Positions 23,852-63,059 of a stretch of DNA of 64,000 nucleotides are shown here, piece after piece. The position numbers and the translations under genes were made by a program. How positions within the stretch are numbered: position 1 is the stretch's first letter; each line of letters begins with the position of its first letter. Source of the DNA: Candidatus Zambryskiibacteriota bacterium (lineage in GTDB: Bacteria; Patescibacteriota; Minisyncoccia; Phycocordibacterales; WO2-35-19); NCBI GenBank assembly GCA_963840745.1, contig CAWJAC010000004.1, positions 4,027-68,026 on the forward strand. The letters are read 5' to 3'. The notes beneath the pieces were generated by a model that was not told the origin of the DNA, made no database searches, and saw only the letters and a list, made by a program, of their open reading frames with translations.

Positions 23852-23855
23852 ATTG

Positions 23856-31232: not shown

Positions 31233-31323
31233 GGCGGAAGGGGAGGGATTCGAACCCTCGGTGCCGTTTAAAGGGCACACATCTTTAGCAAAGATGCACG
31301 ATAGACCACTCCGACACCCTTCC
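31232..31323 (-). tRNA. tRNA-Ser (anticodon GCU), long variable arm, CCA encoded
   Basis: GGAAGGG...CAUCU-UUGCUAA-AGAUG-[long variable arm UGUGCCCUUUAAACGGCAC]-GAGGG-UUCGAAU-CCCUC-CCCUUCC-G-CCA. Confidence 0.9.
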
Positions 31324-35241: not shown

Positions 35242-35318
35242 AAAAAACCAAAATAGCTGCTGTTCCTGCGTTAGGTCATAAGGATAAGGCTCTTGGAACA
35301 ACACTATTTTGGTTTTTT
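35242..35318. repeat. long hairpin with conserved 41-nt core, copy 2 of 2 (between co-directional secY and adk)
   Basis: aaaaaaccaaaatagctgctgttcc-[27-nt loop]-ggaacaacactattttggtttttt. Core 35260-35300 is identical to 4409-4449. The outer stems differ in sequence but still pair. Confidence 0.7.
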
Positions 35319-35341
35319 CTTTATTCTGTTATACTAATTTT

Positions 35342-35932: not shown

Positions 35933-36705
35933 TTAAATACAAAACAGAAGAAGAGATAGCTATCATGAGAGAAGGGGGCAAGATACACGCCCGAATTTTG
36001 AAGGAAGTGGCCAAGAAGGTTAAGCCTGGAGTTAAAACGAGTGAACTCAATTCTTATGCCGAGCAATTAATTGATGAAGCCGGATGCATAGCTTCTTTTT
36101 TGGGCTACCAGCCTTATGATGCCAAGAAACCTTATCCGGCCGCGCTTTGTGTTTCAATAAATGAAGAAATAGTGCATGGCATTCCCAATGAAGGCGGCGG
36201 TCGGATTTTATTTGAAGGAGATATTGTTTCTTTAGATATGGGCCTGACTTACAATGGTCTTATAACCGATGCATCAGTGACTGTGCCGGTAGGCAAAATA
36301 AGTGATGACGCGGCAACTCTTATCAGAGCGACTCATGAAGCTCTGGACGCGGCCATCAAGGCTATGCGCCCGCATGGTCATATTGGCGACATTGGTGATG
36401 CTGTTATACATGTGGCTATGAAATATGATTTTGGTGTCATAGAAGGGCTCTCAGGCCACGGGGTGGGTTACAGCGTACACGAGGAGCCTTTTGTTCCCAA
36501 CAAAGCCGAGCGTGGCGAAGGTCCTGAGCTTCGCGAGGGACTTGTAATAGCTATTGAACCGATGCTTTCTCTCGGCAGTCGTGAAATAAAAAGACTTTCT
36601 GATGGTTATACATTTATAACTCGCGATAAATCATTATCCGCACACTTCGAACATACAGTAGCAGTTGGTTATGATGGAAAAATTGAGATTTTAACAAAAT
36701 TATAA
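35929..36705 (+). CDS. map: methionine aminopeptidase, type I
   Basis: Pita-bread metal ligands in typical context (VHGIP, DIVSLDMG, GHGVG, IEP, EHT). ATGA overlap with adk. Confidence 0.9.
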   Translation: MIKYKTEEEIAIMREGGKIHARILKEVAKKVKPGVKTSELNSYAEQLIDEAGCIASFLGYQPYDAKKPYPAALCVSINEEIVHGIPNEGGGRILFEGDIVSLDMGLTYNGLITDASVTVPVGKISDDAATLIRATHEALDAAIKAMRPHGHIGDIGDAVIHVAMKYDFGVIEGLSGHGVGYSVHEEPFVPNKAERGEGPELREGLVIAIEPMLSLGSREIKRLSDGYTFITRDKSLSAHFEHTVAVGYDGKIEILTKL

Positions 36706-47800: not shown

Positions 47801-47982
47801 CCGGTTTGTCTCCTGGCGATATGGAAGAAATAACAAAATCTCGCCAGGACAATATTTTTATGGACAAGGTATTAGTTGATCTTATGGAAAAAACAAAAGG
47901 AGTTATTAAACCGTTTGAAAATGAAGATGTTGGAACATTTATAAAACGGCTTGGAGCTCAGGCATTAAAAAGAGCAGCATAA
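44857..47982 (+). CDS. large hypothetical protein (1041 aa; acidic/Lys-rich, Pro-rich linkers, central Gly/Ala-rich membrane-like segments)
   Basis: Uninterrupted ORF. TATAAT at 44844-44849 sits 7 nt before the ATG (leaderless-type). Contains PEPAPE-type linkers and segments such as GVGSIAGLAAGVTVAPGIIGLASYLGW. Confidence 0.75.
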   Translation: MEPTIEGASDIREKINAKSNELKVQVLLDIDPSKSLDEKENIYRQTLEFLESLNDEEKLKLKKSDAILIEDLNSLEEVKNKIGRKEEIVAENTPQEEQGFKFEQIDGELLKKLNDAGIKTEIVEALMNLAMYDENEKTLMIRQDADAEHVNDYIKDIVFREPDEVGSPTENGEPFVEQHFDYDKKDKDEGDNEGESGIGEEPQPEVKPEPAPETKKPLSKWNELNSLLMDLNIDLEFNEEQFAKFEEKGLDKAEEKYNEIREAIESFSNKNNLKEIFSTIRLGYPRYEGNSKIFIEDNILFIDLGINKQEIIDFFDKNITQSPVSLEIPPEQAEVPPEPITPEPAPVVLPENVPPAEPSQVEKIPTNEEWEEFVKLRNDLAKTEAKKGNFSIDSGISVENLKLKYVSDKEKIAGLIRKEQHKILGEGPLTEEQERSLNDYLFEELVKKENDVYLNVLRANRKETWKDKTIETAKNLLGTKAVKWYLSLSRSQRMALSFGVGSIAGLAAGVTVAPGIIGLASYLGWRAARVGLSGTAGVAAGEWANKKWSAEELKKAEEKETEDLKNSQLSLEEKSKGLLDIEKRYKKERIKMTLKKVGTTIAAGAGTGFLTGLAEHAVMGAGGAARSVLESKGGKTGTVVENKLPPRKGFEPATKPKPLSITEQAQPAKPSALEQTPAAPKIFSDPSVLKHEVVAGDSTWKILNKTLENNDQFKGMTEAQKTYVLSAMTNKVMQNPGEYGIGKDGFLAVHDKTDFTKLFENTKIKEILDKAHDTIKPGSSQESSIIGNNAKIASWVKENPNVKLTNDKVADILATKPKVEVAPEPIPAPEVSSPEPLPQDILTNSPYELESRTMFAGGAVMAGTAALNSIDEYKKKRDVEQTHMDIAKAKGRLTELEALQARDRNPNLERSFASDSKLFVSNVKFNQKVEEAFKNDIDQIYGKKGLLGVGKVAGINTKEGKKMLGRSAKKIVEYRMGDSAKSGLSPGDMEEITKSRQDNIFMDKVLVDLMEKTKGVIKPFENEDVGTFIKRLGAQALKRAA

Positions 47983-48294: not shown

Positions 48295-48386
48295 AAATTT
48301 CCTTTTTGTTATATATAGTGTATTGCAAATAAGCGGGTTTTTAATTGCCCGCAAAAATTTTTAATAATAAATTTAATCAAAATATT

Positions 48387-49589
48387 ATGGCAGAAGCATT
48401 TGATCGTTCCAAGCCGCACGTTAACGTCGGCACCATCGGCCACGTTGACCACGGCAAGACTACTTTGACAGCGGCAATCCTTAAGATCCTTGACCTCAAA
48501 AAAGGCGAAGGATATGGTGCTCGAGTTGAAGGTGTTGATAAAATTGACAATGCGCCTGAAGAAAAAGCCAGAGGCATTACTATCGCGCTCCACCACAGCG
48601 AATATTGGACTCCTAATAAACACTACGCGCACATTGACGCTCCGGGTCACGCTGACTACATAAAAAATATGATTACCGGTGCCGCCCAAATGGATGGCGC
48701 CATATTAGTGGTAGCCGCTACTGACGGAGTGATGCCGCAAACTAGAGAACACATCCTTTTGGCTTACCAAGTTGGTGTGCCAAAAATTATAGTATTTCTC
48801 AACAAATGCGATATGGTGCCCGAACAGGATTTGATTGACTTAGTTGAGGAAGAAATTCGCGAGCTTTTAACCAAAAATCATTATGACGGCGCTGCCACTC
48901 CTATTGTGCGTGGCTCTGCTCTCAAGGCTTTGGAAGCTAAGGACACGGATGATGAGTGGGCTAAAAAAGTTTTTGAACTTGTAACTACATTGGATACTTA
49001 CATTCCAACACCAGTCCGAGATCTTGATAAACCATTCCTGATGCCAATTGAAGACATTTTCTCAATTGAAGGCAGAGGCACAGTGGTTACCGGAAAGATT
49101 GAAAGAGGAATCGTGAAAGTAGGTGAAGAAGTAGATGTAATTGGTCTGCGAGCTGCTCAAAAAACAACTGTGACTGGTATTGAAATGTTCAATAAACAAC
49201 TTCAAGAAGGACAGGCGGGAGACAATGCCGGCATTTTGCTTCGCGGTCTCAAGAAAGAAGACGTACACCGCGGTCAAGTTATAGCCAAGCCGGGTTCCGT
49301 CACTCCTCATACCGATTTTGAATCAGAAGTTTATATCTTAAAGAAAGAAGAAGGAGGCAGACACACACCTTTCTTTACCGGATACAAGCCTCAGTTTTAT
49401 ATCAGAACTACTGATGTAACCGGAGAGGTGACGCTTAAAGAAGGAGTAGAGATGGTTATGCCGGGAGACACGGTCACCTTTAAAGTTAAATTGGTGGCTC
49501 CGGTGGCCCTGGAAGAGAAGCAAAGATTTGCCATCCGCGAAGGAGGCAAGACGGTAGGCGCAGGAGTAGTTACGAAGATAGTGGCATAA
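48387..49589 (+). CDS. tuf: elongation factor Tu
   Basis: [38 protein letters not shown]. Start trimmed to the conserved N-terminus. Confidence 0.95.
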
Positions 49590-49689
49590 GATGAAATGGC
49601 AGAGAGTACATTAAAAAAAGAAAAAAAAACAGTTCAAACTACGCGGGGCAAGCAAAAAATCTTCTAAAAAAGAAGAGCCTATTTCAAAG

Positions 49690-49986
49690 TTGCGTATCAG
49701 AGTGATGGCTTATGAATATAAAGTGCTTGATCTTTCTGTCAAGCAAATCATTGATACGGCTCTCCGCTATGATGCCAAAGTTGTCGGTCCTATTCCTTTG
49801 CCAACCGAAATAAAAAAATGGACAGTCAACCGTTCGCCTTTCGTCTATAAAAATGCCCGTGAGCAGTTTGAAATGCGAGTGCATCGCAGAGTCATTGACA
49901 TCATCAATCCTTCTCCAAAAATCATGGATTCTCTGACAAATCTCTCTCTGCCGTCTGGTGTGAATATAGATGTAAAAATAATATAA
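49690..49986 (+). CDS. rpsJ: 30S ribosomal protein S10
   Basis: (L)RIRVMAYEYKVLD...GPIPLPT... aligns with the S10 core. TTG start as in the ORF track. An upstream ATG (49596) lies one frame off across A7/A9 runs. Confidence 0.85.
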   Translation: MRIRVMAYEYKVLDLSVKQIIDTALRYDAKVVGPIPLPTEIKKWTVNRSPFVYKNAREQFEMRVHRRVIDIINPSPKIMDSLTNLSLPSGVNIDVKII

Positions 49987-49993
49987 AAAAATC

Positions 49994-50018
49994 AAAAAAC
50001 CGCCTCTCGCGGTTTTTT
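49994..50018. terminator. intrinsic terminator between rpsJ and rplC
   Basis: aaaaaaccgc-ctctc-gcggtttttt (4 G:C pairs extended by A:U pairs), 8 nt after the rpsJ stop. Confidence 0.55.
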
Positions 50019-50105
50019 GTTGCGAAGATTTGAGGGAGGAGTATTTCTCTTGCAAAAAAAAGGGGTTTCTGTTAATCTATGGAAAAGCCCAGGGGCGTTT
50101 TTTAT

Positions 50106-50747
50106 ATGAAATTTATTTTAGCTAAAAAGGTGAATATGACCCAGATTTTTGGGGAAGACGGAGCGGTACAGCCGGCTACTGTTTTAAACGTTGAACCGGC
50201 GACTGTTTCGCAAATAAAAACCAAAGAAAAAGATGGTTATATTGCTGTACAAATTGGATCAGGTTTGCGAAGAGGTAAAAATATTTCTAAAGCGGTGAAA
50301 GGACAGATTAAAGGTTTGGAAGGATTCGCTGATGGCAAAACAGGATTCGCAGCGATTCGGGAATTTAAAATAGCCGAAGCTGATTCAAGTAATTTCAATA
50401 AGGGAGACAAAATTTTGGTGGACGCTTTTGCTGTTGGCGACAAGGTGACGGTTTCGGCTGTTTCCAAGGGTAAAGGTTTCCAAGGTGTAGTCAAAAGACA
50501 CGGCTTCCACGGCGGACCGAGAAGTCACGGCCAAAAACACTCGGAGAGGGAACCGGGTTCGATCGGCGGCGGAGGCAGAGGTGGAGGCAAAGTCATAAAA
50601 GGCATGAGAATGGCCGGCAGAATGGGTGGTGACAGGATTACAGTTAAAAATTTAAAGGTACTTAGTATTGATAAAGAAGCTGGCGAGATGTTAATTTCAG
50701 GAGCGGTGCCGGGGAGAAGAGGAACATTAGTTGAGATAAGAGGATAA
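50106..50747 (+). CDS. rplC: 50S ribosomal protein L3
   Basis: MKFILAKKVNMTQIFGEDG... matches the L3 N-terminus. TTGCAA-17-TAATCT promoter-like sequence at 50050-50078. Confidence 0.9.
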   Translation: MKFILAKKVNMTQIFGEDGAVQPATVLNVEPATVSQIKTKEKDGYIAVQIGSGLRRGKNISKAVKGQIKGLEGFADGKTGFAAIREFKIAEADSSNFNKGDKILVDAFAVGDKVTVSAVSKGKGFQGVVKRHGFHGGPRSHGQKHSEREPGSIGGGGRGGGKVIKGMRMAGRMGGDRITVKNLKVLSIDKEAGEMLISGAVPGRRGTLVEIRG

Positions 50748-50768
50748 ACAAATTTTTAATTTTCAAAA

Positions 50769-51428
50769 ATGGAAGCAACTGTATACAATCAAAAAGGAAC
50801 TGAGACCGGAAAAATCAAACTTCCAGACAATGTTTTTGGTTTGCCTTGGAATGAATCTTTGGTTCATCAAGTGGTGGTATCTATGACAGGAAATGAGAGA
50901 ACACCGGTAGCTCACACTAAGACAAGGGGCGAAGTTTCCGGTACTGGCATAAAACCTTGGAGACAAAAAGGTACCGGCCGCGCCAGACACGGTTCCCGTA
51001 GAAGTCCCATTTGGGTTGGCGGAGGAGTTTCTGGTGGTCCAAGGAAAGATAGAGATTTTTCAAGGAAAATAAATAAAAAAATGAAAACCAAAGCTCTCTT
51101 TACAGTACTCTCCCGCAAATTTAGAGATAGTGAAGTAGTCTTTATAGACAATATTTCTCTAAAAGTAGCCAAAACAAAAGAAGCAAAAAATATAATCACT
51201 TCTCTTTCAAAAATAAAGGAATTTGGCGGAATTGGAAGAAGAAATAATGCTGCCTTTATTGCTTTGGAGGCGAAAGATAAAAATGTTTATAAAAGTTTTA
51301 ATAATTTCGGCAATTTAGAAATGGGTCAAGTTAAAGATCTGAATGCTTTGGACCTTTTGCAATACAAATATCTCATTATGACTGATCCTGAAAAATCAAT
51401 TACAACTTTGTCATCCAGACTAAAATAA
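50769..51428 (+). CDS. rplD: 50S ribosomal protein L4
   Basis: [26 protein letters not shown]. Confidence 0.95.
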
Positions 51429-51432
51429 TTTT

Positions 51433-51720
51433 ATGACAACAGACTTAAAAGCAAAATATTCCGACATTATATTGCGGCCCAGAATTACAGAGAAGGGAAG
51501 TTTTATGACGGAATCAAATGTCCATACTTTTGAAATTGCTCCAAAAGCGACCAAGAAACAAGTGGCCGAGGCTGTTAGAGTTTTTTATAACGTTGTTCCT
51601 ATAAAAGTAAACATTGTTAAAAATCCAACCAAAGAAGTTTTTATAAGAGGCAAGAAAGGCAGCAAGGCTGGAGTAAAAAAAGCTTATGTGTATTTAAAGA
51701 AGGGAGATAAAATCGAGTAA
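51433..51720 (+). CDS. rplW: 50S ribosomal protein L23
   Basis: Position between L4 and L2. ILRPRITEKG...TFEIAPKATKKQV. Confidence 0.9.
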   Translation: MTTDLKAKYSDIILRPRITEKGSFMTESNVHTFEIAPKATKKQVAEAVRVFYNVVPIKVNIVKNPTKEVFIRGKKGSKAGVKKAYVYLKKGDKIE

Positions 51721-51728
51721 ATAAAAAT

Positions 51729-52577
51729 ATGGCAATAAAATTTTACAAACCAACATCAAAATCCAGAAGACACACTTCTAATGTGTCTTATAAATCAATT
51801 TTAACTGAAAGTAAACCCACCAAAGCTCTTACCTTCGGCCGAAAAAGAGCTGTTGGCAGAAATAATGTCGGCAGGATAACCGTTCGCCATAAAGGCGGAG
51901 GACACAAAAGATTATTTAGAGACGTTGACTTTAAATACAATAAAATAAATATTCCCTACAAAATTGTTTCGATAGAATATGATCCAAACCGCACCGGCTT
52001 TATTGGTTTGGCCGTCTATAAAGATGGCGAAAAGAAATATGTGCTTCTGCCCAAAAATATAAAAGTGGGAGAAGAATTTTTAACCGGAGAAAATGCAGAA
52101 ATAAAACAGGGCAACCGAATGCCGCTTCGGAATATACCGGTTGGCGCTTTTGTCTACAATGTAGAATTAAAACCCAGAGGTGGCGCCAAGATTGCTCGTT
52201 CAGCTGGCAATTTTGTCCAAGTGATAGCCAAAGATGCCGGGCATGTTGATTTAAAAATGCCATCGAGCGAAATACATAAAGTAAGAGAGAACTGCTTCGC
52301 AAGCATTGGTGAAGTTTCAAATGAAGAAAAGAGGCTTGAAAACTACGGTAAGGCCGGCAAAAGCAGATGGAAAGGCATTCGCCCAACAGTGCGAGGCACT
52401 GCTCAAAATCCGGTTGATCATCCGCATGGCGGAGGCGAAGGTAGGCAAGGAAGAGGCCGAAGACGCGCCATATCTCTCTGGGGCAAACCAACCGGCAAAG
52501 GCCAGAAGTCTCGCCGCGCCAAAAAATATTCAAATAAATTTATTGTTAGTAGAAGGAAAGTCGGAAAATTGAGATAA
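51729..52577 (+). CDS. rplB: 50S ribosomal protein L2
   Basis: GRNNVGRITVRHKGGGHKR, RGTAQNPVDHPHGGGEG. Confidence 0.95.
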   Translation: MAIKFYKPTSKSRRHTSNVSYKSILTESKPTKALTFGRKRAVGRNNVGRITVRHKGGGHKRLFRDVDFKYNKINIPYKIVSIEYDPNRTGFIGLAVYKDGEKKYVLLPKNIKVGEEFLTGENAEIKQGNRMPLRNIPVGAFVYNVELKPRGGAKIARSAGNFVQVIAKDAGHVDLKMPSSEIHKVRENCFASIGEVSNEEKRLENYGKAGKSRWKGIRPTVRGTAQNPVDHPHGGGEGRQGRGRRRAISLWGKPTGKGQKSRRAKKYSNKFIVSRRKVGKLR

Positions 52578-52588
52578 ATTCAAATACC

Positions 52589-53011
52589 ATGATTAAGATT
52601 TCATCAGTAAATATAGAAGAAAGAAAAAAAATGGACCTGCGTTCCGGAGATACGATTCGTGTTACCCAAAAAATAATTGAGAAAGATAAAAAAACGGCCA
52701 AGTTAAAAACTCGGTTACAGGATTTTGAAGGACTCTGTCTTTCAGTTAAACACGGCAGGGAAGCCGGCAGCACTATCACCTTAAGGAAAGTAGCTTCGGG
52801 TGTAGGAGTTGAAAGAATTTTTCCCATTTATTCTCCGATGATAGAAAAAATAGAAGTGGTTAAACGTTCCAAAGTCCGTCGCGCCAAGCTTTACCACATC
52901 CGCAAAAAAGCCGCCAAAGACATAAGGCGCCAGATGAGAAATATAAGAGAAGTTGCTGAAGTTGAAGAAACTCCAATTGAAACTCTCGCTCCAGAAATTG
53001 AAAAAAGCTAG
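52589..53011 (+). CDS. rplS: 50S ribosomal protein L19
   Basis: LRSGDTIRV...LQDFEGLCLSV...GVGVERIFPIYSP...KVRRAKLYHIR aligns with L19. It occupies the slot where S19 normally follows L2. Confidence 0.9.
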   Translation: MIKISSVNIEERKKMDLRSGDTIRVTQKIIEKDKKTAKLKTRLQDFEGLCLSVKHGREAGSTITLRKVASGVGVERIFPIYSPMIEKIEVVKRSKVRRAKLYHIRKKAAKDIRRQMRNIREVAEVEETPIETLAPEIEKS

Positions 53012-53497: not shown

Positions 53498-53572
53498 GGT
53501 GACTATAGTGTAGCGGTAACACGACAGCTTGTGGAGCTGTTTTCGCCGGTTCGAATCCGGCTAGTCACCCCA
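53498..53572 (+). tRNA. tRNA-His (anticodon GUG) with encoded G-1 and CCA
   Basis: G(-1)-GUGACUA-UA-GUGU-AGCGGUA-ACAC-G-ACAGC-UUGUGGA-GCUGU-UUUC-GCCGG-UUCGAAU-CCGGC-UAGUCAC-C-CCA. Confidence 0.9.
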
Positions 53573-53583
53573 AGGTATTTCTC

Positions 53584-53826
53584 GTGGTAACAAATGCCGC
53601 CATAGGCGGGGTCATCTTACTAAAGCCTATGATAAGGAATTATTTAAACATATTTAAAACCATAGTTTTTTCTATTCTAGGCTTCTTTCTAGCGGTTGTT
53701 TTTAGTGTTTACTTTTTTAATCTGACTAAAACTCTATCATACCGTATGGTAGTGGTATTCCTTGCCCTTATCTTTATTTCTAACCTGACAGCCAAACTTT
53801 TGGTATCTTTTTTTGAAAATAATTAA
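53584..53826 (+). CDS. small 2-TM membrane protein upstream of the GT2 synthase
   Basis: 80-aa ORF (GTG start; an alternative ATG gives MIRNYL...). Two hydrophobic helices. Ends 5 nt before the GT2 gene. Confidence 0.55.
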   Translation: MVTNAAIGGVILLKPMIRNYLNIFKTIVFSILGFFLAVVFSVYFFNLTKTLSYRMVVVFLALIFISNLTAKLLVSFFENN

Positions 53827-53831
53827 TAATT

Positions 53832-55214
53832 ATGTTTAAAAAACTTCCGATATACACATTGCTCTATCTCTTGACTGCATGGATCATCCTTTCGGTGTTT
53901 TTTTTAATGCCGACAGAGAGAAATAATTTTCCCATTCTTCGTTTTATCATTATCGTTTTTGCAACTGTTCTCTTGACTAAATATTTTGTTTATATGTTTA
54001 TAAGTCCCTGGCATGATGTTTATGTGGCTTTTAAAAAGTATAAACAAAATGGATTAATAGCTACAAATAAGTACGAGCCAAAAGTATCAGTACTGGTTCC
54101 GGCTTGGAATGAAGAAGAAGGCATTATCACTACGGCAGAGGCCTTGCTTAAAAGTTCCTATAAAAATATGGAAATAATTATTATAGATAACGCTTCGACT
54201 GATAATACCGAAATAAACGTAAAAAATCTGATAAGAAAATACAAAAACTCACTGGATCATCATGGTCTATCCCATATAGATATTATTTATCTGAGAGAAG
54301 ATAAACAGGGCAAAGGTCATGCACTAAATAAAGGAATTGCTATAGCAAAAGGGGATATCATCATTTCGATTGACGCAGATTGTTACATTCCTCCTTACAC
54401 GATAGAAAATTTTGTAAGCTATTTTAAAGATTCAAAAGTTTCAGCGGCTGTTGGCAATGTAAAAATCGGCAATACTCAAAATATTATTGGAGTTGTTCAG
54501 AATCTCGAATTTTTGTTCTCTTTTTATTTCAAAAAAAGTGATTCGCTGCTCGGTTCTATTTATATAATAGGAGGCGCAGCCGGGGCTTTTCGCAAAGAAA
54601 TTTTTCAAAAACTGGGAGGTTATAGCACCTCCAATATTACAGAGGACATTGATCTCTCTGTTCGAATACAACATTCAGGCATGAAAATAGTTTATGCTCC
54701 AGATGCGGTAGTTTATACCGAAGGAGCCGCTGATTTCAACGGACTGATCAAACAACGTCTGCGATGGAAGCGTGGCCGTTTTCAAACTTTTTTAGAATAC
54801 CGTCACTTATTTTTTAGCACCGAGAAGAGACACAATAAAATTCTTTCTTGGATCATCCTGCCGCTGGCAATTTTTGGCGACGTGCAGCTTTCCTTTGAAT
54901 TATTTTTTATTGCGTTCCTTTATATTTATTCATATTTGATCAATGACTATTCGTCATTTATTTCCGGTATTATTGTGGTCAGCTCTATGTTTGCTGTTCA
55001 AATCCTTTTTGACAGGTATGGCAAAAAGTGGGGACGTCTTATATTGCTAGCTCCCATAGGATGGCTTCTTTTATATGCCAGCACTTTTGTCGAATTTAGC
55101 GCCCTACTGAAAACTTTTTTGGGATATGCGCGGGGAGAAAAGATTGGCTGGCAAAGTTGGAATCGAAAAGGTGTTTTTGTGAAGCAACAAAACATCGAGA
55201 AGAATCTTTTATAA
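53832..55214 (+). CDS. processive family-2 glycosyltransferase (PgaC/IcaA/NodC/chitin-synthase-like)
   Basis: N- and C-terminal TM helices. GT2 motifs VSVLVPAWNEE, IDNASTD, SIDAD, GGAGAFRKE and QRLRWKRG (the Q-x-x-R-W motif of processive beta-glycan synthases). Confidence 0.85.
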   Translation: MFKKLPIYTLLYLLTAWIILSVFFLMPTERNNFPILRFIIIVFATVLLTKYFVYMFISPWHDVYVAFKKYKQNGLIATNKYEPKVSVLVPAWNEEEGIITTAEALLKSSYKNMEIIIIDNASTDNTEINVKNLIRKYKNSLDHHGLSHIDIIYLREDKQGKGHALNKGIAIAKGDIIISIDADCYIPPYTIENFVSYFKDSKVSAAVGNVKIGNTQNIIGVVQNLEFLFSFYFKKSDSLLGSIYIIGGAAGAFRKEIFQKLGGYSTSNITEDIDLSVRIQHSGMKIVYAPDAVVYTEGAADFNGLIKQRLRWKRGRFQTFLEYRHLFFSTEKRHNKILSWIILPLAIFGDVQLSFELFFIAFLYIYSYLINDYSSFISGIIVVSSMFAVQILFDRYGKKWGRLILLAPIGWLLLYASTFVEFSALLKTFLGYARGEKIGWQSWNRKGVFVKQQNIEKNLL

Positions 55215-55242
55215 GAATATTATTTCATAATATAATATAAGT

Positions 55243-56340
55243 ATGCAGAAACGGTCACTACTTGTCTTTTTAGTTTGTTTTGCAATCGTCATTTTAGCCG
55301 GAGTTATTTTATATAATGTTTTTTCTACATCTACCAACATTTTAAAACCAACATCAACACCAAAATCAGATCCGATTCCAGAGACAAAAGCAACAACAAC
55401 CAATAAGAGCGGATTAGAAATCCAGGCTTGGATTTATCCGGGAGAGCCGACTTGCAACGCTCCGTTGGAATACTCCGACGGCAGGAAAATTGATATTTTA
55501 AAGCCGGAATATTTCACGGTAAGTGATGGCGGCAAGATGCTGTTTCTAACGGAACAACAGAGCGGCTGCAACGGATATTCTGTCAAAAATGTCGCTGATT
55601 TAAAAAAATATTCAAAGGAGCAGTATGTTACCTTCTCATCAAATTATGCAGTAAACATGGACTCATTTTTGACTGCAGCTATAAATGATCAAACCGATAT
55701 TAATACATTGGTTTCGTTTGCGGTTGATAATAAGATGACCGGAGTTGAAATAGATTTCGAAGATTTTGGCGGCTGGAATGCCGATATGTATTCAAAATAT
55801 AAACAGTTTATTTCAGATCTTGGAGACGCTTTGCATAAAGACAATAAAAAATTGATGATTGACGGTCCGGCCACTTCAAACCAGACAGAAGAAAATTGGT
55901 ATGTCTGGCGATATACCGATTTTAATTCATTGCCGATAGATCACATGGTGGTTATGACTTACGACAATCAGTTTGATACAGGAGTCGGGCAGCCGATCTC
56001 TCCGACATCCTGGATAGAAAATACCATTAAATGGACTCTTGGCAGATTTCCTGACAAATCAAAACTTTCTTTCGGCATACCTTCATATGGATATAAAGGT
56101 ATTGCCGGAACTCAAAAATTCACGCTTCTAACCTACGACCAAATAAGCAAAGAGCCCGAATTTGATACAGCCATCCGCGACCCCAATTCTTATGAGATGA
56201 CCTGGCAAAACGGCAATAACGTTTATTTTTATCAGGACAGTCAGAGTATGTCTGACAAACTTAAAGTCATACAAAGTGCCGGTATCAATTCCGTTTCCGT
56301 CTGGCACCTCGGCGGCAATTTGTGGTTCGCTAAAAATTGA
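55243..56340 (+). CDS. GH18-like (chitinase-fold) secreted/anchored protein
   Basis: N-terminal TM/signal. TGVEIDFEDF corresponds to the GH18 DGxDxDxE strand, keeping the D-x-E. MVVMTYD and SVWHLGG are typical of the fold. Confidence 0.7.
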   Translation: MQKRSLLVFLVCFAIVILAGVILYNVFSTSTNILKPTSTPKSDPIPETKATTTNKSGLEIQAWIYPGEPTCNAPLEYSDGRKIDILKPEYFTVSDGGKMLFLTEQQSGCNGYSVKNVADLKKYSKEQYVTFSSNYAVNMDSFLTAAINDQTDINTLVSFAVDNKMTGVEIDFEDFGGWNADMYSKYKQFISDLGDALHKDNKKLMIDGPATSNQTEENWYVWRYTDFNSLPIDHMVVMTYDNQFDTGVGQPISPTSWIENTIKWTLGRFPDKSKLSFGIPSYGYKGIAGTQKFTLLTYDQISKEPEFDTAIRDPNSYEMTWQNGNNVYFYQDSQSMSDKLKVIQSAGINSVSVWHLGGNLWFAKN

Positions 56341-56595
56341 TTTTTTTGAAATTTTCGTTGACTAAAAAATATTTTGTTGTGGGTTTTAAATCATCATTAC
56401 AACACGAATGATTTCGTGCCTATTTTTGAACATATTTTTGCTTCTCAAAAACGGTTACAAATTAGACAACCGAATATTTTTTTTGTAACTAGTCATGCTA
56501 CTTATCATACTGTTAAAATTCTGCCATTAACAGATGATTAGTTTAAATTATAATCTTGATATCAATAAAGATATTCGAGTACAAAACATAAAAAT

Positions 56596-58056
56596 ATGAG
56601 TTATAAAAACGAAACTCCTACTGTTCGTGCAGGAGTATTTTTTGTGTCTGTTTTATTATTAGTTGGCATGCTGGGAGCGGGTGTTATGCCTTCTTTGGCT
56701 TTAGCCCGTGGCGGTTCTTATATAAGACCGAGTGTAAAATCAGGAGGATGCACGTTAAAGTTATCAGTCATTCCGGCAAGTAAAACAATTACATCCGGAG
56801 GAGAAATAAATTACAATTTGGTTGCCACTAATGTCGGAAATGGGAATTGTAATATGACGGAGCTTACTGAATATTATCCAAGCAATGAAAAATATGTCAG
56901 TTCCAGCATACAACCAAATGCGCCAAGTTTTTATTGGCTAATTGGTACTCTTCCTGCAGGACAATCTTATTCATTGTCATTAACTACCAAAAATGTGCCG
57001 GATAAAACCTCTCAAGTATTAAACACTGTATGTGTTTCGTACAATGGTGCAAGTGATGTCTGTGTTGATACTAAAATATCAATTTTTTCTTCATCTACTC
57101 CTACTACAACTCCGGCGCCAACGCCGACTTCCACTCTGGTCCCTACGCAGACGGGAGCTGCGACAGAGGCGTGGATTTATCCGGGCAGCCCAGCTTGCAA
57201 TGCTGCTAATGAATATTCCGATGGCAGGGTAGTGGACACGTTAAAACCTGAATATTATCAAGTTCAAAGTAATGGAACATTGCGTCAGATGACAGTTTCT
57301 TCGGACGGATGCAACGGATATAGCGTCAGCAATGTTGCCGATGTAAAAGCGCATTCAGCACATCAGTACGCTACAATCTCGGGGGACATAAGTGGCATTA
57401 GCGCCCTGCTTGCATCCGCGCCACTTCAAAATTCGGCAATTACGACACTGACAAACTTCGCTGTTTCAAGCGGATTTACGGGAATAGAACTTGACTGGGA
57501 GCAATTTGACAGTTGGTCGGCAACAGATTATTTAAATTTCAAGAAATTCACTACTTCTCTGGAAAATAGTCTAAGCGCTCAAGGCAAAAAACTTATGATT
57601 GATGCACCGGCCTTAACAACTGCCGGCTTTCAATTCAAGTATGAAGATTTTGCCAATCTGGATTACGTAGCAATAATGGTTTACGACTATCAATATGATT
57701 ATGGTGTCGGACAGCCGGTTGCGCCTGAATCTTGGATAACAAATGTGACAAAATATGCAGAATCTAAATTGCCAGTGGAAAAAATAGTTATTGGAATTCC
57801 TGCCTATGGATATCATGGAACATTGGGAAGTTACAGTATGATCATCGATACATACGCACAGTCATCAACTTACCCCGGTTTTTCAACAAGAAAAGTTAGT
57901 TCGGAAGGAGAAGAAGTGTGGACAGTCGGAAACACCTATTATTCCGCACAACCGGCATCAAACTTAGATCGTAAAAAAGCTTTGCTCGAATCGTTGGGTA
58001 TAAAAAATATCTCTGTTTGGCACTTGGGAGGCAACAACTGGTTTAGCGAAGATTAG
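56596..58056 (+). CDS. GH18-like protein with an N-terminal Ig-like (DUF11/CARDB-like) domain and Thr/Pro linker
   Basis: Signal/TM, then LVATNVGNGNC-type beta-sandwich and a TPTTTPAPTPTST linker. The C-terminal domain is paralogous to 55243-56340 (EAWIYPG.P.CNA..EYSDGR, TGIELDWEQF, SVWHLGG). Confidence 0.7.
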   Translation: MSYKNETPTVRAGVFFVSVLLLVGMLGAGVMPSLALARGGSYIRPSVKSGGCTLKLSVIPASKTITSGGEINYNLVATNVGNGNCNMTELTEYYPSNEKYVSSSIQPNAPSFYWLIGTLPAGQSYSLSLTTKNVPDKTSQVLNTVCVSYNGASDVCVDTKISIFSSSTPTTTPAPTPTSTLVPTQTGAATEAWIYPGSPACNAANEYSDGRVVDTLKPEYYQVQSNGTLRQMTVSSDGCNGYSVSNVADVKAHSAHQYATISGDISGISALLASAPLQNSAITTLTNFAVSSGFTGIELDWEQFDSWSATDYLNFKKFTTSLENSLSAQGKKLMIDAPALTTAGFQFKYEDFANLDYVAIMVYDYQYDYGVGQPVAPESWITNVTKYAESKLPVEKIVIGIPAYGYHGTLGSYSMIIDTYAQSSTYPGFSTRKVSSEGEEVWTVGNTYYSAQPASNLDRKKALLESLGIKNISVWHLGGNNWFSED

Positions 58057-58090
58057 CTTTTTATTTTGGTTATAGTATAATCGTCGTACC

Positions 58091-58576
58091 ATGAAAAAAG
58101 CACCAATTCCAAAAAATGAAAAAAAGAGAATTGAAGCTGTTCATAGAATGGCCATCTTAGATACGAAACCGGAAAGGCGGTTTGATCGTTTAACCAAAGA
58201 AGCGGTTAAGAAGTTAAAAGTTCCAATATCAACACTTTCCATCTTGGATTCAAAGAGGGAATGGTTTAAATCTTGCCAGGGTTTGAAAGAAAAGGAAGGT
58301 GAGCGAGCCATCTCGTTTTGCGGCCATACTCTGCTTGCCAGAAATATTTTCTTTGTGGAAGATACTTTGAAAGATCCGCGCTTTGCCGATAATCCGATGG
58401 TTATTGGTTCTCCTTTTATCAGGTTTTATGGAGGCATAGCTTTGGTTGATTACAAAAGCGGCCAATATGTAGGAGTCTTTTGCATCAAAGACATTAAACC
58501 AAGGACTCTTAATGCCAAGGAAGTAGATATATTTATAGATCTGGCTGAACAAACCGAAAAAGAGCTTAATAAATAA
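58091..58576 (+). CDS. stand-alone GAF domain protein
   Basis: EKKRIEAVHRMAILDTKPERRFDRLT...SFCGHTLL...FFVEDTLKDPRFADNP...FYGGIAL pattern, typical of GAF sensor domains. Confidence 0.75.
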   Translation: MKKAPIPKNEKKRIEAVHRMAILDTKPERRFDRLTKEAVKKLKVPISTLSILDSKREWFKSCQGLKEKEGERAISFCGHTLLARNIFFVEDTLKDPRFADNPMVIGSPFIRFYGGIALVDYKSGQYVGVFCIKDIKPRTLNAKEVDIFIDLAEQTEKELNK

Positions 58577-58700
58577 TTATTGGATTACTCCAAAAGTAAT
58601 TTGTAAATCGTAGACATATTGTAACAAATGTGTGGTGTTCTTTGTCATATTTAGGGCATGAAATATATGCATATTTTTAGCCAAATAATATATAAATAAA

Positions 58701-59066
58701 ATGAAAAAATTAGTTTTTATTGCGTTTTTGACGTTTGTTTCGTTTGTTTTCATACCCGGAACATCGGTTTATGCCGCCTCGAGACACGGGGCATCCGGGT
58801 TCCATCATAGGAGGAGTAACGGATTGCCTCCTCCTTCAGACTCAACTTCAACTCCACCGGTAACGCCTCCTGATCCGGTTCCTCCTGTCCCTCCGGTGAC
58901 ACCTCCTCCTTCGCCCGTGACTTCAAACTTAATATTAAACCCATCAGTTGAAAGCCAAACAGGAGGCATACCGGATAATTGGTTTACTGATGTGGAGGGA
59001 ACTACGGTTGCATCGTTTTCATTGGTGCGGGGCATACTGGCAATAGCGCAGTGCAAACTACAGTGA
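58701..59066 (+). CDS. secreted CBM + polysaccharide deacetylase (CE4), N-terminal part (frame changes at G-run 59029-59032)
   Basis: Signal peptide, Pro-rich linker, then the start of a CBM4/9-like module (NLILNPSVESQ...NWF). The ORF ends in nonsense after ...SLVRG. Confidence 0.75.
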   Translation: MKKLVFIAFLTFVSFVFIPGTSVYAASRHGASGFHHRRSNGLPPPSDSTSTPPVTPPDPVPPVPPVTPPPSPVTSNLILNPSVESQTGGIPDNWFTDVEGTTVASFSLVRGILAIAQCKLQ

Positions 59067-60040
59067 CAGTAGCTGATCCAACCGGTGGTGATGCAAAATG
59101 GATTTGGGCGCCGGTAGCAGTTGATGCGAACGCTGACTACACATTTTCAGAATATTACATGTCGGACCAAAAAAGCGTGTTGATTGTGGAGTTCAACATG
59201 GCTGATGGCACAAGACAGTTTACAAATCTGGCTGTATTGTCGCCGGCATCAACTTGGACTGAAGTTTCAAAAGAATTCAATGTTCGCCCGGGAACTGTTT
59301 CTGTGACGGTTATGCATGTCTTGCGGAACGTGGGAACTCTGACCATTGATGATGTCTCTCTTAATAAATTGTCGGATGGGACATTCTCGGAAGGATTGGT
59401 GACTCTTTCATATGACGATGGATATGCATCTTTCTTCAATAACGTTTTACCTCTCCTTCAGTCGCACAACTTTGTGGCGAGCGAAAATGTGGTGAATGAC
59501 TTCTTGAATCAAACTGATTATATGACCACAAGCCAAGCGCTTCAAGTAAATAAAGACGGGATTGATATAGGTTCTGAATCTCTCACACATCCGTTCCTGA
59601 CAAGCCTATCGGATACCCAAGCTCTGGGTGAAATACAAAACTCACGAAATGCCTATCTCTCTTCCGGTCTCACTCCAGTTTCTGTGTTCACATATCCGTA
59701 CGGAGATTATAACGACAATGTAGAAAATATGGTCAAAAACAGCGGATATATAGCTGCGCGCGGAACCGATCTCGGGTATAACACAAGGAATAGCAACCCT
59801 TATGAACTGAGAACGGAAAATGTGGAAACTCCCACAACCTTTGCCGAAGTCAAACAGTGGATTGACACCGCTATACAAAACAAAACATGGCTCATACTCG
59901 GACTTCACGATGTCGGTACTTCCAATAATGACGGATATGAAATATCTACCGCTCTTATGCAGCAAATTCTCGATTATTTGGCTCAAACCAAAGCGCGCGT
60001 TGTCACGACAGACTATGTTATGAACAATCTGATGCATTGA
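59051..60040 (+). CDS. CBM + polysaccharide deacetylase (CE4 / NodB-homology), C-terminal part
   Basis: This frame reads back to ...GHTGNSAVQTTVTV (open from 58991). NodB motifs LSYDDGY, ESLTHP, YPYGDYN. Confidence 0.8.
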   Translation: MQTTVTVADPTGGDAKWIWAPVAVDANADYTFSEYYMSDQKSVLIVEFNMADGTRQFTNLAVLSPASTWTEVSKEFNVRPGTVSVTVMHVLRNVGTLTIDDVSLNKLSDGTFSEGLVTLSYDDGYASFFNNVLPLLQSHNFVASENVVNDFLNQTDYMTTSQALQVNKDGIDIGSESLTHPFLTSLSDTQALGEIQNSRNAYLSSGLTPVSVFTYPYGDYNDNVENMVKNSGYIAARGTDLGYNTRNSNPYELRTENVETPTTFAEVKQWIDTAIQNKTWLILGLHDVGTSNNDGYEISTALMQQILDYLAQTKARVVTTDYVMNNLMH

Positions 60041-60150: not shown

Positions 60151-60155
60151 CGCAG

Positions 60156-60196
60156 GCGCCGGGGAGAAACTTTCCCCGGCGCTTTTGGTTTTTTGC
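60156..60196 (+). terminator. strong intrinsic terminator
   Basis: gcgccggggaga-aac-tttccccggcgc followed by ttttggtttttt. Confidence 0.8.
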
Positions 60197-60560: not shown

Positions 60561-60899
60561 ATGAATAATTTTAATATACAAATTCCCAATGACAGTTTCG
60601 CTTATGCCTCGGTATTTGCCGGCAATTTTTCATTGCTTCTCTCTATTGTAATAGGCATTATAGCGACTTTTATTGTTTTTAGAGCGGCAAAAAAGATGGG
60701 GGGCGGACTCTTCGGATCAGTCCTCAATTATATCGGTATCGGCATGTCTCTAATTGTGTTGGGAACTATAGCTACAATCGTTGATCCGTGGTACACAGGC
60801 CTTGGTTTTAACATCGTAAGTACTGTCTGCTTTGCTCTTGGTTATATATTTACGGTTATTGGCGCCAACAAACTTCTTAAAGGCATAATGAACACTTAA
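60561..60899 (+). CDS. hypothetical 3-TM membrane protein
   Basis: 112-aa hydrophobic ORF whose stop abuts the kinase gene start (TAAATG). Confidence 0.65.
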   Translation: MNNFNIQIPNDSFAYASVFAGNFSLLLSIVIGIIATFIVFRAAKKMGGGLFGSVLNYIGIGMSLIVLGTIATIVDPWYTGLGFNIVSTVCFALGYIFTVIGANKLLKGIMNT

Positions 60900-61673
60900 A
60901 TGGGAATAATAATCCCAATATTTTTGATACTGGTTATTCTGGTTTTTTATTTTTATTGGTCTCTAAAAAAAAGAGAAAAAGAAATTGTAAAGGAAAGGGA
61001 AGAATCAACCCGCCGTCTTTACGAACTGGCCATACTTAAAGAATTGGGGGAGCGCACCGGGTATTCTTTGAATATTGAGGAAATACTCCAGATTATCACC
61101 GGCTCGCTACGGCAATTTATTGATTATACGGCGGTTGGCTATATTGTTGTTGCTCCGGAAAAATTAAAAATAAATACTCACATTGAAAAACCGGTAAGCA
61201 GTTTGTTTCTAAAAGAAATGAAAAAGCGGATGATTGCTTCGCTCTCTGCCTTGACCGACAAATCCTTCTTGATTCCGCTACAGTTGGACGAGGTGGTTTC
61301 CGGAGCGATTATCGTTGACGAAATAAAACAGAGTATCGGTTCTTTGTTTAATATTCCGATTGTCATCGGCGGCGTGGTTGCTGGAGTTTTGTCGGTGGCT
61401 CATGTGGATGCCGGTTTGTACAAAGAAGAAGACATGACCATACTTTATAAAATTACGGCCCAGGCATCAGAGGCCGTTTCTCGCCTGGAAGAGGTGGTAA
61501 AAATGGAAAAAGGCAAACTGAATGCCATGGTGGAAAGTATGCAAGACGGAGTGCTGATGGTTGACACTGAGTATAGAATCGTAGTTGCCAATCCGGCTGT
61601 TAAAAAAATTATAAAGTTTGATGGCAAGAAGGACATAAACATTTTTGATTTTGTTGACTGCTCTTGGCGGTAA
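60900..61673 (+). CDS. sensor histidine kinase, N-terminal part (TM, GAF-like, start of PAS; frame changes at T-run 61649-61652)
   Basis: TM helix, sensory region, then PAS start MVESMQDGVLMVDTEYRIVVANPAVKKII...NIFD. This is followed by nonsense and a stop. Confidence 0.75.
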   Translation: MGIIIPIFLILVILVFYFYWSLKKREKEIVKEREESTRRLYELAILKELGERTGYSLNIEEILQIITGSLRQFIDYTAVGYIVVAPEKLKINTHIEKPVSSLFLKEMKKRMIASLSALTDKSFLIPLQLDEVVSGAIIVDEIKQSIGSLFNIPIVIGGVVAGVLSVAHVDAGLYKEEDMTILYKITAQASEAVSRLEEVVKMEKGKLNAMVESMQDGVLMVDTEYRIVVANPAVKKIIKFDGKKDINIFDFVDCSWR

Positions 61674-62634
61674 GTTTGATATTCACGGCAGGCTGGAAGA
61701 AGCCTTGGTCAATAAAAATTCTTTCGTCTCGGAAAGGATAAATATTGATGATTCTTTTTTTGAAATAGGAGTTTATCCGGTTTTGCACTTGCTCCAGAAA
61801 GGAGGCAGCCAGACACTGGGGGCGGTGGCCGTTTTTAATGACATCACTCACGATATAGAACTTGAAAGAGTCAGAGAAGAATTTACCGGCATGATTGTCC
61901 ACGAGCTCCGTTCGCCGCTTGATGGCATTAAAAAAATCGTAGAACTGGCGGTTTCCGGGAGAGTAGATCGAAATTCCGATCAATTTAAAGAATATCTGAG
62001 TATGATTCATCAGAACTCGTCGAGTATGCTTGAATTGGTCAATGATATTTTGGATCTTGCCAAACTGCAGGCGGGCAAGTTTGAAGTTGTTAAAGAAAAA
62101 GCGGACATAAAGGAAGTAATAGAAAACAGAATTTCTTTTTATAAAATTTCAGCTGACAGCAAGAAAATTTCTTTGGAGTCTCATTTTGACAGTAACTTGC
62201 CGAAACTTTCCGAATTTGATCCGCAAGCGCTCAAACAAATTCTTAATAATTTCCTGTCAAACGCTTTGAAATTTACCAAAGAGAGTGGCTCTATATTAAT
62301 TTCGGCATTTGTTTATGATCCCCAAAAGCCATTCCCTGAAGATTTGGATAAATCAAAGGTCTCGGTATTACCGGAGGCCGAGGATATAAACATAAAGGCA
62401 GCATCAATCTGTGTGGTCGTCTCGGATAATGGAGTGGGCATACCGGCAGAGAGCATGAAAGACTTGTTCCATACTTTTAAACAAGCCAAATTGAGTCCGG
62501 TTGATAAGGAAAGCAAAGGCACCGGTCTGGGACTTGTCATTGCCAAAGGTATTGCCGAGGCGCATGGCGGTACCATCGGCGTTGTTTCCAAAGAGGGTTT
62601 GGGCACCAGTTTCTTCTTTACAATACCTTTGTAG
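61645..62634 (+). CDS. sensor histidine kinase, C-terminal part (PAS end, HisKA, HATPase)
   Basis: ...LLTALGGKFDIHGRLEEAL..., H-box MIVHELRSPLDGI, N box LNNFLSNALKFT, G boxes DNGVGIP and GTGLGLVIA. Confidence 0.8.
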   Translation: MILLTALGGKFDIHGRLEEALVNKNSFVSERINIDDSFFEIGVYPVLHLLQKGGSQTLGAVAVFNDITHDIELERVREEFTGMIVHELRSPLDGIKKIVELAVSGRVDRNSDQFKEYLSMIHQNSSSMLELVNDILDLAKLQAGKFEVVKEKADIKEVIENRISFYKISADSKKISLESHFDSNLPKLSEFDPQALKQILNNFLSNALKFTKESGSILISAFVYDPQKPFPEDLDKSKVSVLPEAEDINIKAASICVVVSDNGVGIPAESMKDLFHTFKQAKLSPVDKESKGTGLGLVIAKGIAEAHGGTIGVVSKEGLGTSFFFTIPL

Positions 62635-62675
62635 AGGATATAATTAAACTTAGTCTTATTCGTAACATTCGCAAC

Positions 62676-63059
62676 ATGAAAAAGATATTAGTAATAGATG
62701 ATGATCAATTTTTCTCAAAAACTTTGGAAGCAGCATTGCCAGCCAACAAATATACTCTTATAAGCGCCGAAGATGGCGAAGTGGGTCTAGAAAAGCTTAG
62801 ATCCGAAAAACCGGATCTTATCATTCTTGATTTGATGATGCCAAAACTTGATGGTTCCGCTTTTCTAAAAAAACTCCAGGAATCAACCGACTTGCCAAAA
62901 GTGCCGATTCTAGTTTCCTCCAATCTTTCCAGTGTTAAAAAAATCAGCGATGTCATGGCTATGGGAGCGGTCGGCTACGTCATCAAATCAGACGAAAGTC
63001 TGCAGTCTATTGTTCAAGACATCGAACGAGTACTTGAAGTGGGAGAAAAAAAGGAATAA
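62676..63059 (+). CDS. response regulator, receiver domain only
   Basis: ILVIDDDQ..., DLIILDLMMPKLDG, conserved Ser/Lys positions. 127 aa with no output domain. Confidence 0.85.
   Translation: MKKILVIDDDQFFSKTLEAALPANKYTLISAEDGEVGLEKLRSEKPDLIILDLMMPKLDGSAFLKKLQESTDLPKVPILVSSNLSSVKKISDVMAMGAVGYVIKSDESLQSIVQDIERVLEVGEKKE

Follow-up and report, generated by a model that had tools for sequence, protein, structure and literature searches.

The window, by which we mean the whole stretch of 64,000 nucleotides from a Candidatus Zambryskiibacteriota bacterium (contig CAWJAC010000004.1) that was analysed, carries at 53584-60040 six genes, all on the + strand, for a small membrane protein, a membrane glycosyltransferase of family 2 (GT2), two proteins of glycoside hydrolase family 18 (GH18) that we call GH18A and GH18B, a GAF-domain protein and a deacetylase of carbohydrate esterase family 4 (CE4). 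A first-pass annotation made from the DNA alone had placed six co-directional genes here, and the arrangement is confirmed by the listing of open reading frames (ORFs); its catalogue of domains holds for the GT2, both GH18 proteins and the CE4 when set against Pfam and NCBIfam. The arrangement recurs in dozens of independent metagenomic contigs and is thus far beyond what chance would give.

We think that the locus is probably a synthase-dependent system for a surface polymer containing N-acetylglucosamine (GlcNAc), of the PgaC/IcaA/MatB type. A GlcNAc polymer had been proposed in the first-pass annotation, and that interpretation is supported by the placement of the GT2, by synteny and by fusion proteins. 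It is the adjacency of the genes, the swapping of partners at a fixed position, the fusions and the GT2 placement that lead us to put the GT2, the GH18 proteins and the CE4 in one GlcNAc-type pathway, and the module most likely makes and trims such a polymer rather than digesting chitin for food.

The synthase and its partner genes

The GT2 gene (53832..55214, + strand) encodes a protein of 460 aa, predicted from its ORF, Pfam, NCBIfam, an AlphaFold2 model and Foldseek to be a processive membrane synthase resembling PgaC, IcaA and MatB. The D, DxD and QRLRW motifs that had been reported for it are present, and 26 aligned homologues show no variation at D124, D181-A-D183, T270-E-D272 and Q308-R-L-R-W312. 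In Pfam it matches Glycos_transf_2 (1.4e-30), several further GT2 models and, weakly, Chitin_synth_2. The model (pLDDT 79) begins with two N-terminal transmembrane (TM) helices, continues with a cytosolic GT-A domain and interface helices and ends in a C-terminal set of TM helices, and its best Foldseek match is the hyaluronan synthase (HAS) of Chlorella virus (TM-score 0.66-0.70), followed by PcManGT, XlHAS, BcsA and chitin synthases (Chs1); a sequence search of the PDB gave no structure of PgaC, IcaA or NodC for comparison.

With regard to placement among known synthases, the GT2 groups with those for GlcNAc polymers. The best NCBIfam match is PgaC_IcaA (TIGR03937) at 180 bits, with CelA at 64.5 bits and NodC (TIGR04242, cut-off 550 bits) at 64.4 bits. 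In BLASTP the identity is 28.5% over 386 aa to E. coli PgaC and 28.3% over 392 aa to IcaA, as against 23.6% over 284 aa to S. meliloti NodC and 19.8% over 253 aa to BcsA, and a profile of the GT2 family from the candidate phyla radiation (CPR) scores PgaC at 144, IcaA at 119, NodC at 70 and BcsA at 37 bits. The multiple alignment has the motifs GNxxIxN, ITEDIDxS and LxGLxKQRLRW in common between the GT2 and PgaC/IcaA, as is the C-terminal W..(P/W).R.G tail, which NodC and BcsA lack, and in a rough neighbour-joining tree rooted on NodC the GT2 family is sister to PgaC plus IcaA. The NodC reference came from a part of S. meliloti pSymA that carries no annotation; a Mesorhizobium protein (H40) was rejected for this purpose, as it turned out to be another GT2. 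Alignment and model together have shown a complete catalytic signature and a predicted processive membrane synthase fold that is nearly end-to-end collinear with PgaC and IcaA.

The GT2 is strongly conserved, with 56-84% identity over the 120 best clusters, whose source names are Parcubacteria or Patescibacteria. When 1.84 billion cluster representatives were searched exhaustively, the relatives formed a continuum, with 1,050 at E ≤ 1e-30, and the 150 best-scoring representatives are all above 165 bits and so above the reference PgaC and IcaA scores.

Gene contexts were taken from long contigs and from 80 metagenomic loci found with a GT2 alignment, using local ORF calling and iterated hidden Markov models (HMMs). 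Collapsing the loci at 95% identity gave 61 GT2 groups, of which 47 were evaluable, and those with a family-HMM score of ≥ 690 bits are referred to as close relatives. A contig search with the single GT2 protein gave distant GT2s only (L005-L026) and was uninformative on synteny. An adjacent co-directional partner gene is present in 38 of the 47 evaluable groups, being GH18-like in 24, a protein that we call X in 12, and a protein with a carbohydrate-binding module (CBM)-like domain plus CE4 in two. In the close relatives it is present in all 30 groups (18 GH18-like and 12 X), where GT2 and partner lie from a few to some tens of nucleotides apart. The type of partner follows the GT2 tree, X being the downstream partner in a sister clade (L048-L062, L066, L069; for example L062:2444-4168) and CBM-like plus CE4 occupying the partner position in two remoter groups. 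X has about 520 aa, with a DUF11 domain resembling that of GH18B and a domain of about 285 aa that corresponds to no Pfam family and is weakly like a ‘putative GH97’ (PDB 10yv, E = 1.2e-4); from its sequence X looks like a domain swap for GH18.

The cluster is thus conserved in relatives, as small ORF–GT2–GH18 is kept, and the order GH18B–GAF–CE4 recurs in one other contig (L112). Judged from these contexts, the conserved core in Parcubacteria-type CPR is a small protein, the GT2 and one predicted secreted TIM-barrel enzyme. Some of the loci have further genes of interest. In one (L002/L030:12777-16764) the small ORF–GT2–GH18 module belongs to a larger glycan cluster, in which genes for a GT8, for another GT2 of 512 aa that is cellulose-synthase-like and for an NTP-transferase come after it. 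In another (L003:6123-12406) a third paralogue of GH18 is found no more than 9 kb from the module, as are genes of the GH15, GH57 and glycogen-synthase-like kinds. These small genomes have GH18 in multiple copies.

The small protein (53584..53826, + strand) had been described as an 80-aa protein with two TM segments ending 5 nt before the GT2 gene. The 5-nt gap is correct, but the length probably is not: the ORF opens with GTG at 53584, and homologous small ORFs align from Met16, so that ATG 53629 is probably the true start and the protein one of 65 aa. An alignment of about 40 small ORFs upstream of GT2 homologues has two hydrophobic segments, the second with the conserved motif Y(R/K)xV..F...LI..SN..AK (SNxxAK), and a small two-TM ORF bearing the motif precedes the GT2 in 29 of the 48 groups that have upstream sequence. 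A profile built from 36 of these ORFs matches this ORF alone in the window (65 bits, E = 9e-20), and Pfam gives no match for it. PgaD and IcaD, which are not homologous to each other, are small partners that their synthases require (PMC7112194), and it is by analogy with them that we put the small protein forward as a putative accessory subunit.

GH18A (55243..56340, + strand, 365 aa; PF00704 at 4e-14) and GH18B (56596..58056, + strand, 486 aa; PF00704 at 3e-14, DUF11 at 7e-8) are paralogues with 39% identity, as had been proposed, and score 53.4 and 53.8 bits for PF00704 against a cut-off of 29.6. GH18A has an N-terminal signal-anchor helix, a low-complexity disordered linker and a GH18 (β/α)8 domain that, since Lys and Arg residues precede the helix, should face outward. 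Its AlphaFold2 model (pLDDT 91) has a confident barrel, for which GH18 structures lead the Foldseek matches. GH18B is the protein in which an Ig-like domain and a Thr/Pro stalk had been noticed, and it does have a signal peptide, a DUF11 Ig-like domain (residues 59-150), a Thr/Pro linker and a GH18 domain in that order.

In an alignment of 27 GH18 sequences the invariant residues are E169-I-D171-F-E173, M238-T-Y240-D241, W354 and the Cys pair C71/C109. The catalytic acid, its partner Asp, the MxYD motif and the Trp of the -1 subsite are all kept, and the first two Asp of the full DxxDxDxE motif are replaced by Thr and Glu. GH18 enzymes cleave β-1,4 GlcNAc linkages, by a chemistry that requires a 2-acetamido sugar. 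Homologues of GH18A are 44-76% identical to it and carry the names Moranbacteria, Patescibacteria or ‘spore germination protein YaaH’. The nearest solved proteins are 5jh8 (E = 4e-15), SleL (4s3j/4s3k), YaaH, 4wiw, 4q6t and YdhD, with Foldseek TM-scores of 0.65-0.75, and the Pfam search of the GH18 proteins found no LysM or other peptidoglycan-binding domain. The closest full-length relative of GH18A found outside CPR in plasmids (L114:6941-8122, Streptomyces sp. NBC_01431) has 33% identity over 98% of the query and adjoins a nonribosomal peptide synthetase gene and a lysine 2,3-aminomutase gene, not a GT2.

The PNAG (poly-GlcNAc) hydrolases named in one published study are in GH20 (DspB) and GH153 (PgaB), and the GH153 barrel of PgaB is structurally like GH18 and GH20 without having their catalytic motifs (PMC5933820). 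The proposal that GH18 proteins here replace the hydrolase domain of PgaB stands as an analogy only, as the GH18 family has no detectable similarity to the PgaB GH153 domain in hhalign (probability 0.2%).

Fusion proteins give further support for a shared function, as GH18, CE4 and GT2 domains share single polypeptides among the GT2 relatives. A tblastn search of plasmids with GH18A found a 1117-aa protein of Bacillus mycoides p322 (L115:5443-8796), annotated ‘glycosyltransferase’, in which Pfam places GH18 at 111-400, CE4 at 480-583 and GT2 at 756-1044; hydrophobic segments at 23-41 and 713-731 would put the GH18 and CE4 domains outside and the GT2 domain inside. Among the 150 best-scoring GT2 representatives there are 29 longer than 650 aa, of which 26 have CE4 and seven also GH18, and the order GH18–CE4–GT2 was read in two proteins of about 1,100 aa (that of p322 and P0375) with the arrangement TM–GH18–CE4–TM–GT2. 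On the CPR profile the GT2 domains of three of the fusions reach 208-221 bits, above PgaC and IcaA and the highest among the reference proteins that were scored. A related fusion is known in Streptomyces, where MatB (CE4–TM–GT2) is needed together with MatA, a protein of no known domains, for PNAG, the polymer being identified by antibody staining, dispersin B and periodate (PMC5972031). The authors of that study note that sequence alone cannot separate β-1,4 from β-1,6 synthases (PMC5972031).

The accessory genes and limits of the locus

The gene after GH18B (58091..58576, + strand) encodes a stand-alone protein of 161 aa. Its description as a GAF protein is below threshold in Pfam (GAF_2 at 14.7 bits against a cut-off of 28.6) but is upheld by a match of residues 3-144 to the N-terminal GAF domain of a solved diguanylate cyclase (PDB 4zmu, E = 8e-30). 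It is a possible cytosolic regulator.

The last gene (58701..60040, + strand) had been described as a single secreted protein with a CBM4/9-like domain and a NodB-homology domain. The CE4 domain is well supported (Polysacc_deac_1, PF01522, 1.9e-19, 70.3 bits against a cut-off of 23.1), but the gene is split in two frames, with a signal peptide, Pro-rich linker and the start of the CBM in 58701-59066 and the remainder in another frame at 59051-60040. The break is at a GGGG run (59029..59032, + strand) where one nucleotide is missing, either by a real deletion or by an assembly error, and addition of one G restores ...LVRGHTGNSAVQTT..., matching the intact homologue P0246. The repaired protein of 446 aa (signal peptide, Pro-rich linker, CBM-like domain and CE4) is 61% identical to P0246 across the junction. 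P0246, of 572 aa, has two CBM-like modules and CE4, and the CBM4_9 label rests on the homologues P0246 and P0249, which have weak or faint matches to PF02018. The CE4 family aligns with the deacetylase domain of PgaB in hhalign (probability 98%, E = 2.5e-13), and also with 6dq3, the PgaB N-terminal domain (4u10) and PdaC. We considered the frameshift as proof that the gene is a pseudogene and rejected this, as the PNPase and histidine kinase genes of the window are also split, so that assembly indels are at least as likely as pseudogenisation.

P0246 is on L112, where a DUF11-GH18 protein with 66% identity to GH18B and the same architecture, a 161-aa GAF protein (81%) and the CE4 (61%) are in the same order as in the window. 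As the core is widespread and this trio recurs in L112, we see the locus as having two layers, a core of small protein–GT2–GH18A and a lineage-specific accessory unit of GH18B–GAF–CE4. The gap of 255 nt before GH18B holds a promoter-like site, TTAACA-16-TATAAT (56527..56554, + strand; 11/12 matches in a consensus scan), where a second transcription unit, GH18B–GAF(–CE4), may begin; it is weak evidence, because the total of promoter-like sites in the region is not above that in shuffled sequence. Downstream of the CE4 there is a strong terminator-like hairpin (60154..60184, + strand) with a 14-bp stem including nine GC pairs, followed by a T-run, which we take as the 3' boundary of the locus. 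The promoter-like site before GH18B and the terminator after the CE4 fit the two-layer division.

The upstream boundary is a tRNA-His (GTG) gene (53499..53572, + strand; Rfam tRNA 67.4 bits, and ARAGORN), which is outside the system and whose end at 53572 abuts the small ORF at 53584. It is the sole Rfam match flanking the locus, with no riboswitch or other Rfam element there. A short GC hairpin, CCGCC-ATA-GGCGG at 53597-53609, is 3' of the tRNA-His gene and inside the GTG-initiated frame of the small ORF, and could be a tRNA processing or terminator element.

On the 3' side of the CE4 gene, 60561-63059 has genes for a small membrane protein, a GAF-PAS histidine kinase and a response regulator, and elsewhere (L113:524-4475) a MASE1 hybrid histidine kinase comes after P0249, a homologue of the CE4; there may be a recurring link of the deacetylase with two-component signalling. 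The kinase of the window (GAF-PAS-HisKA-HATPase) is split into 60900-61673 and 61645-62634, with the break outside any homopolymer, and PNPase (two RNase_PH domains, KH and S1) is split into the overlapping same-strand ORFs 16327-17457 and 17402-18436. Three split genes in 64 kb (PNPase, the kinase and the CE4) suggest assembly indel errors or unusual gene decay.

Elsewhere in the window the ribosomal-protein superoperon appears to be rearranged. In 48345-53011, EF-Tu, L3, L4, L23 and L2 are followed directly by L19 (52589-53011) and not by S19-L22-S3, and Adk and Map, which normally end the spc operon, are at 35309-36705, 13 kb upstream of this run. Just upstream of EF-Tu is an ORF of 1041 aa (44857-47982) with no Pfam match at E ≤ 0.001. 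There is also a tmRNA gene on the minus strand (23853-24282, Rfam 74.7 bits), and there are further tRNA genes at 27291-27363 and 31235-31323.

The proposed polymer and alternative explanations

If the locus is a synthase-dependent system as we propose, the GT2 would polymerise a UDP-sugar, most likely UDP-GlcNAc, at the cytoplasmic face and pass the chain through its own TM channel, with the translationally coupled small two-TM protein as an obligatory membrane subunit analogous to PgaD, IcaD and MatA. Outside the cell the membrane-tethered GH18A and the secreted DUF11-GH18B would cleave or transglycosylate the nascent chain, which could serve length control, release or grafting to the wall. 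In this lineage the second unit would add partial de-N-acetylation of the polymer by the CBM-CE4 enzyme, and the cytosolic GAF protein may regulate the system.

Several observations weigh against this proposal. The GT2 is PgaC/IcaA-like by our comparisons and not an equivalog, its 180 bits being far under the PgaC_IcaA equivalog cut-off of 422.3, and its sugar specificity is not readable from its sequence. The profile of the small proteins gives only about 1 bit with PgaD and IcaD, with no detectable similarity. There is no GH18, X or CE4 neighbour in nine of the 47 evaluable GT2 groups, all of them more distant members, and over 83 related loci the GAF gene was found at none and the CE4 gene at three. 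The CE4 reading frame of the window is broken at 59029-59032, and the protein has Glu176 (GAA) where the first metal-binding His is present in seven of seven homologues, with only the DD of motif 1 and the second His of HxxxH kept from the metal triad, so that the activity of this copy is uncertain. The peptidoglycan-cortex hydrolases SleL and YaaH are among the nearest solved relatives of the GH18 proteins. Lastly, a PgaC-like synthase and GH18 enzymes are discordant for one of the two linkages, because GH18 cleaves β-1,4 bonds: the ancestry of the GT2 would favour a β-1,6 linkage and the chemistry of GH18 a β-1,4 one.

The likeliest of the alternatives is one in which the same machinery makes a chitin-like β-1,4-GlcNAc product that forms a structural element or sheath in the CPR envelope, with the GH18 proteins remodelling it as true chitinases or transglycosylases and the CE4 turning part of it into chitosan. 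Fungal and insect chitinases remodel chitin alongside chitin synthase in just this way. The GH18 catalytic motifs are intact and invariant and known GH18 substrates have β-1,4 GlcNAc linkages, the GT2 has its weak Chitin_synth_2 matches, and the strong conservation of the GT2 over the 120 best clusters would suit a housekeeping envelope function; the linkage made by MatB is likewise not separable by sequence (PMC5972031). We nevertheless think this alternative unlikely, as the GT2 is clearly nearer to the PgaC, IcaA and MatB type than to NodC, its model is no better a match to Chs or NodC than to HAS or BcsA, and MatB, the sole characterised relative of the fusion type, makes β-1,6 PNAG (PMC5972031).

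A wider suggestion, which we put forward tentatively and at low probability, is that a chitin-like (β-1,4-GlcNAc) or other new GlcNAc polymer is a core component of the Parcubacteria-type CPR envelope, or alternatively that these GH18 proteins act on β-1,6 PNAG, which would be a first for their family. With a synthase of PgaC descent, a new small subunit and GH18 chitinases or transglycosylases, the module would then be a bacterial counterpart of the fungal chitin synthase and chitinase (plus deacetylase). In the literature, as far as it was covered, we found no CPR module of GT2 and GH18 and no GH18 partnered with a PgaC-like synthase, nor, with the same partial coverage, any prior description of a bacterial chitin synthase or of a GH18 acting on PNAG.

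A different explanation is that the GH18 proteins are peptidoglycan glycosidases, either autolysins like SleL, YaaH and YdhD or enzymes for attack on host walls, that happen to be beside a GT2 for an unrelated glycan. In its favour, SleL, YaaH and YdhD are among the closest solved relatives, and homologues are annotated ‘spore germination protein YaaH’. We think it quite improbable, given adjacency in 30 of 30 groups of close relatives, sister clades that swap in another TIM-barrel enzyme or CE4 at the same position, the fusion of GH18 to CE4–GT2 in other bacteria and the lack in Pfam of LysM or another peptidoglycan-binding domain. It is mainly the synteny and the fusion data that disfavour this explanation and the two that follow.

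A nutritional role for the GH18 proteins, as chitinases that scavenge chitin or GlcNAc from the environment in a cluster that is not biosynthetic, is in our view very improbable. An analysis of a Moranbacteria metagenome-assembled genome does list two ‘chitinases’, but it notes that the genome is without genes for converting GlcNAc further (PMC9530719), which fits a biosynthetic role better, and the tight coupling to a synthase and small membrane protein, the membrane tether of GH18A and the fusion proteins joining GH18 to synthase are also against it.

Equally hard to sustain is a NodC/NodB-like system, in which GT2 and CE4 would make short, partly deacetylated chito-oligosaccharide signals and no polymer: a synthase and a NodB-homology deacetylase are both in the window, but the NodC score and identity (64 bits against a cut-off of 550, and 23.6%) are low, the CE4 is outside the conserved core, there is no NodA-like acyltransferase among the Pfam matches at 50-64 kb, and the C-terminal TM region is collinear with that of the polymer-secreting PgaC and IcaA.

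There are consequences for the annotation of CPR genomes, in which GH18 genes are as a matter of routine taken for ‘chitinases’ or ‘YaaH’ and treated as evidence that chitin is scavenged (for example PMC9530719). Where such genes are obligate neighbours of a highly conserved synthase, the metabolic and ecological reading of the genome is changed. Few conserved systems for the envelope or for surface glycans can be defined in Parcubacteria, and the module, being one of them, is a concrete candidate for a matrix or adhesin that attaches cells to hosts or surfaces. More generally it brings to light an uncharacterised connection of GH18 with PgaC-like synthases, present as split genes in CPR and as GH18–CE4–GT2 fusions in Bacillus and others, which if borne out would extend the specificity of GH18 to PNAG or add chitin-like polymers to those made by bacteria.

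Comparison with known systems

Cellulose systems likewise combine a processive synthase with a hydrolase that acts on what it makes, BcsA being accompanied by BcsZ (the order bcsA-bcsB-bcsZ-bcsC is present in L111), and Pel with PelA is another synthase-dependent exopolysaccharide system of this kind. The locus differs from BcsA–BcsZ in that the glycosidase is of family GH18 and the polymer presumably different. In the case of the GH18 ‘CFLE’ subgroup, comprising SleL, YaaH, YdhD and the orphans 5jh8, 4q6t and 4wiw, the DxE motif is held in common with GH18A, but unlike SleL and YaaH the GH18 proteins of the window have no LysM or sporulation context, have a membrane anchor or DUF11, and are coupled to a synthase.

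The similarities to pgaABCD and icaADBC are more extensive. The membrane GT2 has D, DxD, TED and QRLRW and is collinear up to and including the W..R.G tail, the gene for a small two-TM partner adjoins that for the synthase, and, as in pga, an extracytoplasmic TIM-barrel glycosidase accompanies the synthase and the CE4 of the window is homologous to the N-terminal domain of PgaB. The first-pass annotation had seen in the locus a mirror of pgaCD-pgaB and icaAD-icaB, which is right as to the presence of a synthase, small partner and CE4, but the partner is not homologous, and the CE4 is outside the core and, in the window, is frameshifted and has Glu at a metal ligand. There are also differences in that the small protein is encoded upstream of the GT2 and is unrelated to PgaD and IcaD, the glycosidase is a canonical GH18 without detectable similarity to GH153, no PgaA porin or IcaC was seen, and the conserved CPR core has no deacetylase.

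MatB and the GH18–CE4–GT2 fusions have the same types of catalytic domain as the locus, three in the case of the triple fusions, for which we found no published function, MatB itself having no GH18 domain. The topology of the fusions matches the predicted locations of the CPR proteins. In contrast to the fusions, the locus has separate genes, a duplicated GH18 with DUF11 on one copy, and a dedicated small two-TM protein. What is new in the locus by comparison with all of these systems is the small subunit family, the use of GH18 (or another barrel) instead of GH153, and the existence of split and fused architectures for what we think is probably one kind of GlcNAc-polymer machinery.

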